Counted from the first letter of the stretch, positions 1 to 64,000 are shown. The stretch: DNA of 64,000 bases from Candidatus Spyradenecus sp. (GCA_045535075.1 JAZSKX010000007.1:160001-224000), one strand, 5' to 3'. A program made the numbers and translations. Notes: generated by a model from the letters alone, not told the origin.

Positions 1-1520
1 CGGCGCCCGCGTTTGGCTGTGAGTCCGGCACCGATGGACGGGTCTTCAAGCAGTTTACGGTGAAAGGTTCGGCGGGAAATGCCGAGAAAATCCGCTGCCG
101 CCGAGCGGTTGCCGTTTGCCTGAATCAGGGCTTGGCGCAGAAGGCGTTTTTCGTTGTCCTTCTTCGAGAGCGCTTCCTTGCGCGCTTTGTTGATGGAAAC
201 GACGTTTTTACGTTTTTCTTCGAGCGCTTCCGCAAATCTTTCCGGAATATTTTCTTCGGGCAGCTCGGTTTCGGGATTCATCTCGGGAGCTTCCGTTGCG
301 GGAACGCTCGGCATGATGTTTACTTTCTTTTGCGGCGCGAGCGGTAGCTTCAAGGTGAAACGCGGATCTAAATCGTAGGGCGTTACTTCGCCGACTCCGT
401 CGTGCATGACGACAAGATTTTCGCAGAAATTTCTCAATTCGCGGATGTTGCCCGGCCAGCTGTAGGCGCAGAGCGCTTCCATGGCTTCGCCGGAAATGCG
501 TACGCGCGGAAGCCCGTTTTCCTGCGCAAAAAAGTTTACGTAATATTCGATCAGAATCGGAATGTCCGTGCTGCGTTCCCGCAGCGCCGGAAGCATCAGC
601 GCGACGACGGAAAGCCGATAATAAAGGTCTTCGCGGAATGTTCCCGCCTTTACCATTTCCGCCAGATTGCGGTTTGTTGCGCAGACGAGGCGCACGTCAA
701 GCTGGATTTGTTTTTGGGCTCCGAGGCGTTCGATTGCATGGGTTTCGAGGAAACGCAGGAGTTTTACCTGTGTTGCCAAATCGATTTCTCCGATTTCGTC
801 GAGAAAAAGCGTTCCGCCGTTAGCCGCTTCGAAGCGCCCGATTCGGCGTTCGTTCGCTCCCGTGAAGGCTCCTTTTTCGTGACCGAAAATTTCACTTTCG
901 AGCAAAGTCGGCGCAATCGCCGCACAATGCACGGCGATAAACGGTTTTTTCGCACGCGGCGAGCTTTGGTGGATTAGCTGGGCGAAAAGCTCTTTGCCCG
1001 TTCCCGTTTCGCCGAGAAGCAAAACCGTCGTTTTGGCTAACGCGACGCGCTTTGCTTTTTCGACGGTCGACAAAAGCGCCGGGCTGTTGCCGACCAATTT
1101 GGAAAAATTAAATTTCTGGTTGAGCCGCGAAGACATTGCGCGGTTTTCCTTTTCCGTCGTGCGGGATTGAATTGCGCGCTGAATGACAATTTCGAGTTTC
1201 TCCAGATTGAGCGGTTTCGTGAGAAAATCGTAAGCGCCGCGCCGCATGGCTTCGACGGCGGTTTCGACGTTCCCGTAGGCGGTCATCATGATGCAAACCG
1301 GCTTGTGCGGGAGCTGCAAGGCGTAATCGACGACGGAAAGCCCCGACTTGCCGGCCATGCGCAAATCCGTAAGGACGACATCAAAGTTTTCCGAATCCAT
1401 CAGGCGCAGAGCTTCATCGGCGTTGCTTGCCGTGTAGACTTCGTAACTGTCTTCAAGTGTCGACGCCAAGCCTTCGCGCGTGTTTCTTTCGTCATCAACA
1501 ATCAGGAGGGAAGCTTTCAT
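1..1520 (-). CDS. Sigma-54-dependent response regulator, NtrC/AtoC family (REC + AAA+ + Fis HTH); runs off the window start
   Basis: Manual translation from ATG at 1520: MKASLLIVDDE receiver domain, GETGTGKE Walker A, GAFTGA, LFLDEIGE, WPGNIREL, and C-terminal ALIQANGNRSAAADFLGISRRTFHRKL HTH in the same frame. It is absent from the ORF track only because the stop lies beyond base 1. Confidence 0.93.
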   Translation of the reverse strand, partial: MKASLLIVDDERNTREGLASTLEDSYEVYTASNADEALRLMDSENFDVVLTDLRMAGKSGLSVVDYALQLPHKPVCIMMTAYGNVETAVEAMRRGAYDFLTKPLNLEKLEIVIQRAIQSRTTEKENRAMSSRLNQKFNFSKLVGNSPALLSTVEKAKRVALAKTTVLLLGETGTGKELFAQLIHQSSPRAKKPFIAVHCAAIAPTLLESEIFGHEKGAFTGANERRIGRFEAANGGTLFLDEIGEIDLATQVKLLRFLETHAIERLGAQKQIQLDVRLVCATNRNLAEMVKAGTFREDLYYRLSVVALMLPALRERSTDIPILIEYYVNFFAQENGLPRVRISGEAMEALCAYSWPGNIRELRNFCENLVVMHDGVGEVTPYDLDPRFTLKLPLAPQKKVNIMPSVPATEAPEMNPETELPEENIPERFAEALEEKRKNVVSINKARKEALSKKDNEKRLLRQALIQANGNRSAAADFLGISRRTFHRKLLEDPSIGAGLTAKRGR

Positions 1521-1684
1521 ATAATGCGACATATTTTCCTTATTTCTTGTCGGGTTCGCGAGAAAATTTTTTTGCGGCGCGGGAACGCGTAAATTCTTGC
1601 GGTAATTCTTGAAGGTCGGAATCTGAGAGCGCGGCGGGTTTTTCTTTAAAAATCCTGAAATTTTCAGCTTCACCGAATTCGGGC

Positions 1685-1713
1685 TTGCAAGATGAGGGAG
1701 AGAGCGAGAGAAT
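1685..1713 (+). promoter_or_regulatory. Possible sigma70-type promoter of sucCD
   Basis: TTGCAA-17 nt-GAGAAT about 70 bp upstream of the sucC ATG. Confidence 0.3.
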
Positions 1714-1781
1714 GCCAAAACGAGCGCGCTTCGGCGTATTTCTCCGCGGCGGGCTCTGTCGAACTTTAACTCAGTTATTTT

Positions 1782-61337: not shown

Positions 61338-61414
61338 AAAATATGAAAACGATGCCGGCAGTTTTTTGCTTTGGGATAACTTCCGGCATCGCTTATTTGT
61401 TATTTGCCCAATCC

Positions 61415-63601
61415 ATGCCTGACGTTCCCGCAGAAAAAACACGCATCGAAGCGCTTCGCAAGGAAATTGCCGAACACGACGAACGCTACTATCGCCACGC
61501 AACGCCGATTATTTCCGACTACGAATACGACACGCTGAAAGCCGAACTCTCGGCGCTCGAAGCCGCGTTCCCGCAATACGCATCGACGGACTCGCCTACG
61601 CAAAAAGTCGGAGACGACAGCACCGAAGGTTTTGAAAAATACCGCCATCGCGTGCCGATGCAGTCGCTTGAAAATACCTACAACGAAGGTGAATTCATGG
61701 AGTTTTGCCGGCGAATCGCGAAGTCCGTTCCCGCAGAAGAGATTGATTTTGTCGTCGAACCCAAAGTTGACGGTATTTCGGTTTCTTACACTTACGAAGA
61801 CGGAAAATTCGTGCGCGCCGTTACACGCGGAAAGGGCGAAGAAGGCGACGATATTTCGCGCCACGCGGTAAATATTACCGGTGTTCCCGCAAGATTGAAG
61901 CCGATTCCCGGAAAGGCGTTTCCCAAAATTATTGAAATTCGCGGCGAAATTTTTATGCGCAATGCCGAATTTTTGCGCATCAACGCCGAACGCGAAAAAC
62001 TCGGCTTGGAGCTTTTTGCCAATCCGCGCAATCTTACGGCGGGAACCGTCAAATCTCAAAATCCGAACGAAACGCGTTCCCGTAAGCTTAGCACGTTTGT
62101 TTACGGCATCGGCTACTGCGAGCCGGAATCCGCTTTCGCAACGCTCGGAGAACTCCGCGAAACGCTTGCCGCCTGGGGCTTGTCCGTTCCCGACTTTTTT
62201 GAGCACGCGCGTAGCGGCGAGGCGGCTTTTGATGCGATTTCAAAACTCGGCGAATTACGGAAAAATTTTGATTATCCGACCGACGGCGCCGTCGTAAAAA
62301 TCAACCGGATTGCGGTGCAGCGCGAACTTGGAGAAAAAGTCAATGCGCCACGCTGGGCAATTGCTTTTAAATATGCGCCGGAGCAGGCGGAAACGACTTT
62401 GCGCGCGATTACGCTTCAGGTCGGGCGCACGGGAAAAATCACGCCCGTTGCCGAGCTCGATCCCGTCGAAGTCGCGGGAACGACGGTTTCCCGCGCCACG
62501 CTCCACAACGAAGACGAAATTGCGCGTAAGGATTTGCGCGTCGGCGATCGCGTCATCGTCGAAAAGGCCGGCGAAATTATTCCGCAAGTCGTTCGTTTCG
62601 TTCCCGAGAAGCGCAAGCCGGATGCGGAGGTTTTTTCTTTTGAAAACGAAGTGAAAAAACTCGGTATCGAGGCGGAGCGCCCGGAACGCCTCATTGATCC
62701 GAAGCATCCGGAAAAAGGCACGGAGCGCATCGCCGCTTGGTATGTTCGCGAAAAAGATTCGCCGGAACTGCGCACACGCAAATTGCTCTATTTTGCGGGA
62801 AAAACCTGCATGGACATTCCGAATCTCGGAGAAGCCGTCGCAGCGCAACTCGTTGAAAAAAATCTGGTGCGCGTTCCCGCGGATCTTTACAAGCTCACAA
62901 AAAGCGATTTGCTCGGCTTGGAAAAATTTAAGGAAAAATCCGCGCAGAATCTGCTCGACGGGATCGAGGCCTCGCGTTCCCGCGAACTCTCCCGCCTGAT
63001 TAACGGGCTGGGAATTCCGAATGTCGGCGAGACGACGGGGCGGGATTTGGCGCGTCATTTCAAAACGCTTGATGCGCTGGCAGAAGCGGATGTTCCCGCA
63101 CTTGTTGCGATTTACGGAATCGGCGAAGTGGTTGCGCAGAGCGTTTTTGACTTTTTTCAAACGCCGGAAAACCGTGCACATTGTGAGGCGCTCAAAGCCG
63201 CCGGAGTCAATACACGGGAACACGAAGCTGCGGAGATTTCACTTTCGCAGGACAATCCGTTTGCGGGAAAAACCTTTGTGCTCACGGGAACGCTTCCGAC
63301 GCTGAAGCGTGCGGATGCCAAAGCGCGCATCGAACGGCTCGGCGGGAAAGTAACGGACTCCGTCAGTGCAAAAACATCCGTTGTGCTTGCCGGAGAAGAA
63401 GCGGGTTCCAAGCTCGAAAAAGCGAAAAAATTGGGTATTACGATTCTTGACGAAGCGGAATTTTTCGCTTGGGAGCAACGCGCTTTGGACGGTGCAAATC
63501 CGAACGAAAAAATGTCTGATGTTCCCGCAGCGTCGGAAACATTAAGAAACGATTTGCCGACAACGAAATCGGCGAATCCCGAACAACTCGAATTGTTTTA
63601 A
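61415..63601 (+). CDS. ligA: NAD-dependent DNA ligase
   Basis: YY..ISDYEYD, EPKVDG (active Lys), [24 protein letters not shown], HhH, BRCT (FVLTGTL..GSKLEKA). Start is 61415 or 61343. Confidence 0.96.
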
Positions 63602-63606
63602 GCGCG

Positions 63607-64000
63607 GTGGCAACGGATAAAAAATCAACCGTGCTTCCGCCGCAGATTCCGGAAAGCGAGTGGGCGGAAAGCGTTCCCGCGCAGACGATCCGCGACGGGA
63701 AATTGCTCGCGCCGTCGGTGCTCGACGTGATGTGGACGGCGCCGATTATGCGCGGGAAGGTCGCCGAAGGCGCGCGTCGATTTTTGGTGAATTTGGATTT
63801 GCGTTCCCGTACCTTCATCAAGTCGGAATGCACTTGCGATGCCGGGAAAACCGGACGTATTTGCCGTCACGCGATCGCAATTTATTTTTCGTATTTCAGC
63901 GCGATGCTTCAGGCGGCGGAAAATGCGCGCAAGCTTGCCGTTGCCAAAACGCTTCGCGAGAATGCACCGCCGAACCGAACAAGCACCGCTCCCGCGCGTG
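63607..64000 (+). CDS. SWIM zinc-finger protein, partial (possibly the N-terminus of an SNF2-type helicase)
   Basis: Manual translation from GTG 63607: ..FIKSECTCDAGKTGRICRHAIAIY.. (CxC..CxH); open to the window end. Confidence 0.7.
   Translation, partial: MATDKKSTVLPPQIPESEWAESVPAQTIRDGKLLAPSVLDVMWTAPIMRGKVAEGARRFLVNLDLRSRTFIKSECTCDAGKTGRICRHAIAIYFSYFSAMLQAAENARKLAVAKTLRENAPPNRTSTAPAR

Follow-up and report, generated by a model that had tools for sequence, protein, structure and literature searches.

A hyperabundant nonpalindromic octamer limited to one genus of gut Opitutales, a candidate DNA uptake sequence

INTRODUCTION

Sequence-specific DNA uptake is described, in a recent preprint (10.1101/2025.10.24.684340), as documented in two families of Proteobacteria only. 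The genomic signature given there for DNA uptake sequences (DUS) and uptake signal sequences (USS) comprises copy numbers in the hundreds or thousands, a share of the chromosome that reaches ~2%, inverted repeats at terminators, a bias of reading frame, and depletion in genes of recent acquisition. Here, we analyzed a 64,000-nucleotide stretch of DNA from Candidatus Spyradenecus sp. (GCA_045535075.1, JAZSKX010000007.1:160001-224000; the whole stretch is hereafter called the window), which is saturated with one nonpalindromic 8-mer, CGTTCCCG, or its complement, CGGGAACG. This word, which an initial annotation of the window had put forward as a candidate DUS, is examined below in the whole genome and in its relatives.

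The DUS of Neisseriaceae, read by the minor pilin ComP, resembles the Spyradenecus word in being a short nonpalindromic word with thousands of copies on both strands (10.1101/2025.10.24.684340), and also in its presence in genes and in terminator inverted pairs, its restriction to one clade, its depletion in recently acquired DNA, and its share of ~2% of the genome. Both go together with a type IV pilus with PilT, with ComEC (a ComEC-like protein in our case), and with DprA. They differ in phylum and in sequence, and the rigid core is 8 nucleotides (nt) here versus 10 to 12 nt in DUS. Also unlike DUS, the word studied here has a density of 2.6 to 4.5 copies per kb, lies mostly in genes, and is known from genomes alone, with no dialects found and with neither a ComP_DUS domain nor ComEA found in the genome that contains the window. 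The density of DUS is ~1 per kb.

The USS of Pasteurellaceae (PMC7811141, PMC12616744) likewise lies mostly in genes in tolerant frames, has graded positions, forms terminator pairs, and marks the 'self' DNA of a clade; ComN/PpdA is its predicted receptor. Unlike the USS, the word described here lacks AT-rich flanking segments, is randomly spaced, and is known from genomes alone. The spacing of USS is more even than random.

HIP1 (GCGATCGC) of cyanobacteria is another hyperabundant 8-mer, of comparable density, which is found both in genes and between them and whose function is unsettled (PMC4390886). It is palindromic and holds the targets of two orphan methyltransferases, whereas the word studied here is asymmetric, and among the methyltransferases placed in the genome there is no candidate outside islands and prophages. 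Chi and the polar motifs KOPS (FtsK-orienting polar sequences) and AIMS (architecture-imparting sequences) are over-represented 8-mers scattered through genes as well; unlike them, the present word is not strongly co-oriented with replication (55.5%). Our literature searches gave no report of a word of this kind, or of specificity in DNA uptake, for Verrucomicrobiota, and searches with the word or its complement returned primer noise only.

RESULTS AND DISCUSSION

The word is the commonest 8-mer of the genome and is kept at the DNA level

The window is part of an assembly of 1,949,087 bp in 18 contigs that is 99.45% complete (the source genome, G000, where the window is C8:160001-224000). It contains 207 exact copies of the word, 126 on the plus strand and 81 on the minus strand, of which 185 lie wholly within called coding sequences and 22 do not. 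By comparison, 100 dinucleotide-preserving shuffles gave a mean of 6.59 copies and a maximum of 14. The saturation of the window described in the initial annotation is thus confirmed, as is its mention of many one-mismatch copies (232 were counted). A script recovered every position that it had listed (10 of 10 in ligA and 13 of 13 in a GH2 gene), with no exact copies beyond these in the two genes, and Pfam agreed with both gene names (Table 1).

Across the source genome, the word occurs 5,159 times (2,632 forward and 2,527 reverse) and ranks first among all 8-mers. At 2.65 copies per kb, or about one per 380 bases, it takes up 2.1% of all bases, and all large contigs have 2.4 to 2.9 copies per kb. 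The commonest 7-mer is GTTCCCG (6,528 copies) and the commonest 10-mer is GCGTTCCCGC (1,614 copies). Read backwards, the word has 77 copies, and an order-3 Markov model predicts 587; the maximum-order expectation for the 8-mer (5,030) was set aside, as it gives no information when the signal is already present in the 7-mers. The sequence logo reads g-CGTTCCCG-(C 63%/T 25%)-(G/A), in agreement with the extension to CGTTCCCGC/T proposed from the window, and its information is limited to ~11 nt, ending within about 2 nt of the core.

For the analysis of coding DNA, 1,445 genes covering 87% of the genome were called from open reading frames and a codon-usage score. The coding DNA holds 4,281 copies, compared with 464 (standard deviation, about 12 to 18 per strand) after synonymous codons were shuffled within each gene, a procedure that leaves the proteins and the per-gene codon usage unchanged; shuffling the order of codons left 154. 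All six frames are used, with xCG GGA ACG (A/T/S/P-G-T; 1,474 copies) and xxC GTT CCC Gxx (x-V-P-x; 1,159 copies) ahead of G-N (717), R-E-R (387), x-F-P (278), and R-S-R (266), and the two dominant frames put motif positions 1, 4, and 7 on codon third positions. The peptide readings noted from the window (AGT/TGT, VPA, RER, RSR, and GN) were all right, and so was the statement that no single peptide bias explains the motif, given the use of six frames and an enrichment that survives the protein-preserving codon shuffle 9-fold. Genes contain 83% of the copies, yet the intergenic density (3.46 per kb) is higher than the coding density (2.52 per kb). The six frames, the excess over the shuffles, and the higher intergenic density therefore indicate that the enrichment resides in the DNA rather than in the proteins: CGTTCCCG is kept at the DNA level, not through protein coding.

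That composition, codon usage, or a repeated peptide produced the enrichment as an artefact might be suspected from the dominance of the AGT and xVPx frames in the genome and from the largest gene of the window, a giant gene whose 47 copies all read CGGGAACG on the coding strand and occupy two frames. A repeated peptide does add to the DNA-level enrichment in this gene, the one place where such an effect is clear. The dinucleotide, codon-order, and synonymous-codon shuffles, however, fall 9-fold to 30-fold short of the observed counts, intergenic DNA is richer in the word than coding DNA, and sister genera of similar composition do not have it, so that an artefact is already refuted and we assign it practically no probability. 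Nor did the word show the features of repetitive extragenic palindromic elements or miniature inverted-repeat transposable elements, its information being confined to the ~11 nt of the logo with no longer unit and most of its copies being genic.

Copies are weakly oriented, randomly spaced, and graded by position

When 10-kb bins were oriented by the sign of their GC skew, CGGGAACG was found on the G-rich strand 2,382 times and on the C-rich strand 1,908 times. This bias of 55.5% is weak and of the size expected from the skew and from gene orientation; it is not a polarity of the Chi or KOPS kind, and the check on replichores proposed in the initial annotation thus came out without such a polarity. 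A directional signal for recombination or segregation, Chi-like or KOPS-like, would be a short over-represented 8-mer too, in a genome with RecD2 and other recombination genes, but the orientation of 55.5 to 44.5 relative to the GC skew makes this explanation extremely unlikely. Leading-strand polarity is ~75% for Chi and >85% for KOPS, and the density and enrichment of Chi are far lower than those of this word.

The distances between copies are near exponential, with a coefficient of variation (CV) of 1.10, or 1.02 without close pairs. Among one-mismatch variants, those at positions 1 to 3 and 5 are enriched over the order-2 expectation, and those at positions 4 and 6 to 8 are at or below it, which marks the latter positions as strict. 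The most enriched variants are TGTTCCCG, AGTTCCCG, and CGCTCCCG, at 6.4, 4.5, and 4.1 times expectation, respectively. No depletion was seen for C-to-T variants, which reach 1.05 to 1.46 times expectation at positions 5 to 7 and 6.4 times at position 1.

Inverted pairs resemble intrinsic terminators

In the source genome, pairs in which the motif is followed by its complement within 40 bp number 203, with a sharp peak at 20 bp, compared with 49 pairs in the opposite order. Of these 203 pairs, 155 are intergenic, between convergent (58), same-strand (91), or divergent (6) gene neighbors, and an A-run and a T-run usually border the paired copies. When one mismatch was allowed in the partner, 361 of the 881 intergenic copies (about 41%) lay in such hairpins versus 26 in the opposite arrangement. 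Six hairpins are found in the window (Table 1), with folding energies of −18.5 to −26.3 kcal/mol and z-scores of −4.7 to −7.5, and one of them (11129..11150) was within the top two of a simple terminator scan. Judged by their sequence, the inverted pairs look like bidirectional intrinsic terminators.

These hairpins raise the question of whether the word is primarily a component of terminator stems, perhaps recognized by a host factor, the genic copies being by-products of small-scale gene conversion or of another DNA-level drive unrelated to uptake. Such an origin would fit the single fixed arrangement of the intergenic hairpins as well as their persistence in the low-density species described below, where the paired share is 0.04 to 0.40 versus 0.08 in the source genome, somewhat larger although from small samples. 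It is nevertheless quite improbable, since the copies inside genes, 83% of the total, are single, in both orientations and in all frames, that is, half-stems without a terminator role, and the flanks beyond ~11 nt carry no information, which argues that nothing larger than the word is being copied.

Contigs from other samples break or are misjoined at motif hairpins; for example, in the part of the window from 40001 to 60000, the positions ~43180 and 44083 were joined to 56338. In this respect, the hairpins mislead assemblers in the manner of short dispersed repeats.

The word is limited to one genus

The genus, Candidatus Spyradenecus/Spyradosoma, consists of Opitutales genomes assembled from animal gut metagenomes, and the source species recurs in sheep, goat, and other gut metagenomes from at least 11 studies. 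All 19 species of the genus are enriched in the word, with reversed-word controls of 74 to 159 copies. Fifteen of them, including the source species, are of high density, with 5,159 to 7,762 copies (2.6 to 4.5 per kb). The other four are of low density (about 0.3 to 0.7 per kb), namely, G001, G002, and G013, with 1,347 to 1,385 copies, and G014, with 552. The low-density species have the same word with a weakened 5′ CG. In the clade of G001, G002, and G013 described below, the 3′ core is the better preserved part, TTCCCG being present at 3.05 per kb versus 5.6 in the source genome. Background levels were found in 12 genomes from 12 other families of the order and, by a 10-mer search, in the four sister genera within the family (62 genomes). 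The word is thus limited to one genus.

One candidate for a sister-genus dialect, CGTACCCG, which ranked first among the 8-mers of a 100-kb sample from genome G031, was rejected. It is at control level genome-wide in 40 of 40 genomes of that genus (g14), and the peak in the sample was therefore local. CGTACCCG is depleted in the high-density species, which reflects at least in part a general avoidance of GTAC (observed/expected ratio [O/E], 0.55).

The word is maintained in the source genome and decays in its nearest relatives

The relationships within the genus were taken from RluD, whose identity to the source protein is 91 to 92% in G013, G002, and G001, 81% in G004 and G018, 70% in G014, and 64 to 67% in the rest. 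In the RluD tree, G001, G002, and G013 are monophyletic (97/97) and sister to the source genome (99/99), and the backbone is too weak to place G014. The nearest relatives of the source genome are thus three low-density species with ~0.65 copies per kb, and G004 and G018 are high-density species.

In a LigA codon alignment of 14 species, 5 of the 10 sites of the source genome are common to most of the distant high-density species, and the three nearest relatives have 0 to 1 each (738 in L040, 1969 in L042, and none in L041). We then compared nine genes, taking for each the source genome, a low-density relative, and a high-density outgroup. Fifteen sites are present in the source genome and the outgroup and gone in the relative, three are present in all, and none is present in the relative and the outgroup and gone in the source genome; seven are found in the source genome only and none in the relative only. 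Of the inferred ancestral sites, the source genome has kept 18 of 18 and its nearest relatives 3 of 18. Alignments of 122 gene pairs, 150 kb in total with a nucleotide divergence of 20%, showed 339 sites specific to the source genome, 56 present in both, and 20 specific to the relative. Of the 339, 152 differ by silent changes alone, and the differences peak at motif position 4 (176).

The retention of 18 of 18 sites against 3 of 18 indicates that the word is actively maintained at the DNA level, and the data fit a process that both keeps and adds it in the source genome and the other high-density species. They likewise fit a loss or weakening of this process in the lineage of G001, G002, and G013, where the word is eroding. 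Because these relatives do without three quarters of the sites, most single copies are locally dispensable.

Decay in one subclade, with the uptake genes intact (see below), is also what would be expected if the word were the binding site of an abundant chromosomal protein specific to the genus, under weak selection at thousands of sites, and if this protein had been lost or changed in the low-density clade. The uniform density on all large contigs, the use of both orientations, and the depletion of foreign DNA would agree with such a site. Selection per site would, however, be extremely weak at >5,000 sites, yet the source genome lost 0 of 18 sites and the relatives 15; in addition, the relatives tolerate a loss of three quarters of their sites, and spacing is random. 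We know of no nucleoid protein that reads a rigid 8-mer at such density. A protein-binding site is therefore distinctly unlikely in our view.

Prophages, islands, and viruses are poor in the word

The longest motif-free stretches of the source genome are prophage, defense islands, and restriction-modification islands, plus the very conserved rpoB. Two Mu-like elements of ordinary GC content (Table 1) have densities 4 to 6 times below the host average, and their copies of CGTTCCCG are single and within genes. The larger one, on contig C16, encodes Mu Gam, a TniB/MuB-like ATPase, Mu gp27, a large terminase, and a Mu portal protein; the other, on C8, carries a C5 cytosine methyltransferase, an AAA_22 ATPase, and DUF3850. 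Islands of low GC content without the motif hold a 1,609-aa helicase, a pair of TIR and PD-(D/E)XK genes, a C5-methyltransferase, and type I HsdM genes; the genes of the two islands listed in Table 1 (L058 and L059) are probably defense genes. Of the 2.9 million contigs of IMG/VR, 33 carry the motif hairpin, and no phage at the motif density of the host was found among these 33, the maximum being 0.63 copies per kb.

Two small contigs of the source genome, C18 (3,741 bp) and C3 (3,143 bp), have 0 and 1 copy, respectively, versus 8 to 10 expected, and may be mobile elements, rRNA pieces, or misbinned DNA. Two further proteins of the C16 prophage, of 487 and 912 aa, contain an ADP-ribosyltransferase exoenzyme domain and YadA-head repeats, respectively. 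Besides GTAC, the source genome avoids other short palindromes (O/E: GGCC, 0.17; CTAG, 0.40; GATC, 0.51; CTCGAG, 0.25), which suggests a long exposure to restriction systems with these targets.

Pilus, competence, and modification genes

The source genome has one secretin, in an operon that corresponds by NCBIfam to the Akkermansia Amuc_1098/1100/1101 type IV pilus cluster and includes a PilM-like gene. An ATPase operon near RecD2 contains two PilB/GspE-like genes, a gene of the PilT/PilU family (368 bits versus a cutoff of 319), and PilC/GspF. Four clustered minor pilins adjoin ruvX, rluD, recJ, and recR, two further pilins have 141 and 237 aa, and the pilins match the N-terminal methylation motif only. 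DprA scores above the NCBIfam equivalog cutoff, and a ComEC-like protein is present. The search for competence genes proposed in the initial annotation was therefore successful for the pilus, PilT, ComEC-like protein, and DprA and unsuccessful for ComEA and the ComP_DUS domain. Its statement that no competence gene lies in the window was correct, the lone HHH_3 match there belonging to a Tex-like gene.

As to gene order, purD sits between pilC and RecD2 in the region of the pilB-pilT-pilB-pilC operon (G000:C5:25800-35700, L076), and ruvX, rluD, recJ, recR, and ybaB flank the four minor pilins (G000:C1:257700-272000, L060). A second secretin of ~780 to 880 aa with a better Pfam score, absent from the source genome, is found in 7 of the 19 species (G001, G002, G013, G014, G004, G018, and G012). 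It was considered as a correlate of low density and rejected, since besides the four low-density species it occurs in the high-density species G004, G018, and G012.

The methyltransferase search that the initial annotation had also suggested gave C5 and type I HsdM genes, and the source genome had no match to Vsr or to the N6_N4 methyltransferase family. Of the two C5-methyltransferases, one is carried by a prophage. The other (C12) is located within or next to a motif-poor island of low GC content, as are two type I HsdM genes (on C12 and C9), the third one, on C10, being left without placement. For the genes that were placed, this location suggests recent acquisition.

These results bear on an iterated word of the HIP1 type, that is, one driven by a methyltransferase or by a mismatch-correcting nuclease that biases repair toward the word, which would then build up in any DNA with a long residence in the cell. 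HIP1 itself is about as dense and has been connected with orphan methyltransferases (PMC4390886). An intracellular process of this kind predicts that resident prophages would gain the word, as they appear to have done at ~0.5 copies per kb, far above the reversed control, and since the decaying clade keeps all tested uptake genes, the factor lost there could be another one. The present word, however, is nonpalindromic, Vsr and N6_N4 methyltransferases gave no match, the placed methyltransferases sit in or beside motif-poor islands or in prophage, and C-to-T variants are not depleted as very-short-patch repair predicts. Thus, both of the alternatives named in the initial annotation, the HIP1-like word and the nucleoid-protein site, are weakened, and the former appears improbable to us.

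A candidate DNA uptake sequence

Our analysis gives about an even chance that (G)CGTTCCCG(C/T) is a DNA uptake sequence by which this genus of gut Opitutales tags its DNA as 'self'. The genomic signatures, as we analyzed them, match those of DUS and USS in copy number, maintenance at the DNA level, use of both strands, reading frames, terminator pairs, limitation to a clade, depletion in foreign DNA, graded positions, and the presence of a retractile pilus, a ComEC-like protein, and DprA. In the proposed mechanism, a surface or periplasmic part of the route formed by a retractile type IV pilus and ComEC would bind word-bearing DNA preferentially; word-bearing fragments from relatives would then be taken up and recombined more often, and this transmission bias would over time write the word into every tolerant place. 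Inside genes, the word would settle preferentially in the two frames that put motif positions 1, 4, and 7 on codon third positions, and between genes, pairs of the word would double as terminator stems. We infer biased uptake, and with it a receptor, behind a word whose reality, restriction to the genus, and maintenance are documented above. A transmission bias accounts better than site-by-site selection for the holding of >5,000 sites and for their joint erosion once the bias stops.

In this reading, with its roughly even odds, the word would belong to a third, independent system of DNA-uptake specificity, in a new phylum, with a receptor of a new type and no ComEA. The initial proposal of a DUS-like system is partly supported: its DNA-level nature, lack of polarity, genus specificity, terminator pairs, scarcity in foreign DNA, and type IV pilus with PilT, a ComEC-like protein, and DprA were borne out, and ComEA, ComP_DUS, and dialects were not found.

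Several results weigh against an uptake sequence. ComEA was not found in the source genome, where HHH_3 is strong only in the 787-aa Tex-like protein, which is for this reason not a ComEA, and the ComEC-like protein of 570 aa matches the N-terminal and competence domains only. ComP_DUS (PF16732) had no match at an E value of ≤0.1 in the 99.45% complete genome, so that any receptor would be new. Dialects in related genomes, which the initial annotation had proposed to look for, were found neither in the genus nor in the four sister genera: the samples of the sister genera, one genome per genus, gave no words of their own, and samples of 50 to 81 kb from the low-density species gave no different word. 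A spacing more even than random was not seen genome-wide (CV, 1.0 to 1.1). Only ~8% of the copies of the source genome are in inverted pairs, whereas the preprint (10.1101/2025.10.24.684340) puts about half of DUES in terminators. Known uptake sequences have densities 2 to 4 times lower, the prophages, poor as they are, still exceed the reversed-word control >10 times, and the source organism is known from metagenome-assembled genomes only.

The gene content of the low-density clade counts in the same direction. ComEC, the pilus secretin, the four minor pilins, two other pilins, and PilT are all full-length there without an internal stop, with identities to the source genome of 80 to 91% for the four minor pilins and 97 to 98% for PilT. 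As every pilus and competence gene of this tested set is intact in the decaying clade, loss of these genes was rejected as the cause of the decay and does not explain the lost drive. No gene of the source genome without a counterpart in the decaying clade was found in a syntenic sample of ~300 kb (~15% of the genome), and the driver may lie elsewhere in the genome. A DNA-level drive outside the known transformation machinery, e.g., sequence-directed gene conversion or repair, would explain both a decay with the tested pilus, ComEC, and pilin genes intact and the gain of the word by prophages; we hold such a drive to be rather unlikely. If true, it would represent a new kind of genome-wide 'self-writing' mechanism.

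If the word does serve uptake, it would be the third independent case, in an unrelated phylum, implying that self-recognition by uptake words evolves repeatedly, and the system would work without a ComP-type receptor and perhaps without ComEA. If uptake is not the cause, the word presents a puzzle on the scale of HIP1 with an unusually clean comparative handle. The genus amounts to a natural experiment, with close species at 2.6 to 4.5 versus 0.3 to 0.7 copies per kb; with this contrast, the long-standing question of drive or function can be tested directly, and comparative genomics might lead to the receptor. In practice, the word is a sharp marker for binning DNA of the genus and for spotting foreign DNA in its genomes, and its presence on donor DNA could open uncultured gut Opitutales to genetics.

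Other features of the window and the genome

The features located in this work are collected in Table 1.

Table 1 Features of the window (positions 1 to 64,000) and of other parts of the source genome (G000, with contig and coordinates)
Feature	Location	Strand	Remarks
GH2 beta-galactosidase-like gene	7021..11103	+	Pfam; 13 exact copies, both orientations
Tex-like gene, 787 aa	17963..20326	-	Sole strong HHH_3 (ComEA-type) match of the whole genome
Giant autotransporter-like gene, 4,269 aa	25333..38142	-	PATR repeats and Peptidase_S6 (IgA1-protease-type) domain; 47 copies
ligA, NAD-dependent DNA ligase	61343..63601	+	Pfam; 10 exact copies (8 on +, 2 on -)
Inverted motif pair, convergent genes	3924..3951		A-run and T-run on flanks; RNA fold, −26.3 kcal/mol
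Inverted motif pair then T-run, directly after GH2 gene	11129..11150		RNA fold, −23.4 kcal/mol; terminator-scan match
Inverted motif pair between convergent genes	16891..16915		RNA fold, −18.5 kcal/mol
Inverted motif pair after glutamate dehydrogenase gene, before Rho-like gene (both -)	23688..23715		RNA fold, −25.3 kcal/mol
Inverted motif pair directly after giant gene	25299..25326		RNA fold, −22.2 kcal/mol
Inverted motif pair, convergent sulfate permease and ferritin-like genes	56344..56371		RNA fold, −22.4 kcal/mol
Mu-like prophage	G000:C16, about 183-221 kb (L054-L056)		Motif 0.58 per kb; ordinary GC
Second Mu-like (transposable-phage-like) element	G000:C8:20000-33000 (L057)		Motif 0.42 per kb; ordinary GC
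Island, lower GC, motif-free	G000:C16:146000-154000 (L059)		CAP12/Pycsar-type TIR protein beside PD-(D/E)XK nuclease
Island, lower GC, motif-free	G000:C5:229500-234300 (L058)		1,609-aa DEAD + UvrD double helicase

Contigs of four public runs were compared with positions 40001 to 60000 of the window for variants. None of the 40 variant places listed, out of 587, fell in a motif copy, where ~0.6 would be expected, and the comparison has hence no power.

The predicted product of the giant gene resembles a giant autotransporter passenger. RluD has ~360 aa in the genus, and the matches from sister genera cover only query residues ~3 to 245 (L060:10405-11499); the protein of the genus may thus carry a C-terminal extension of ~120 aa. 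Amid housekeeping genes, positions 15596 to 16762 of the window (plus strand) encode a 388-aa protein with an LPD3 domain (large polyvalent proteins), a domain that is usually found in proteins of mobile elements.

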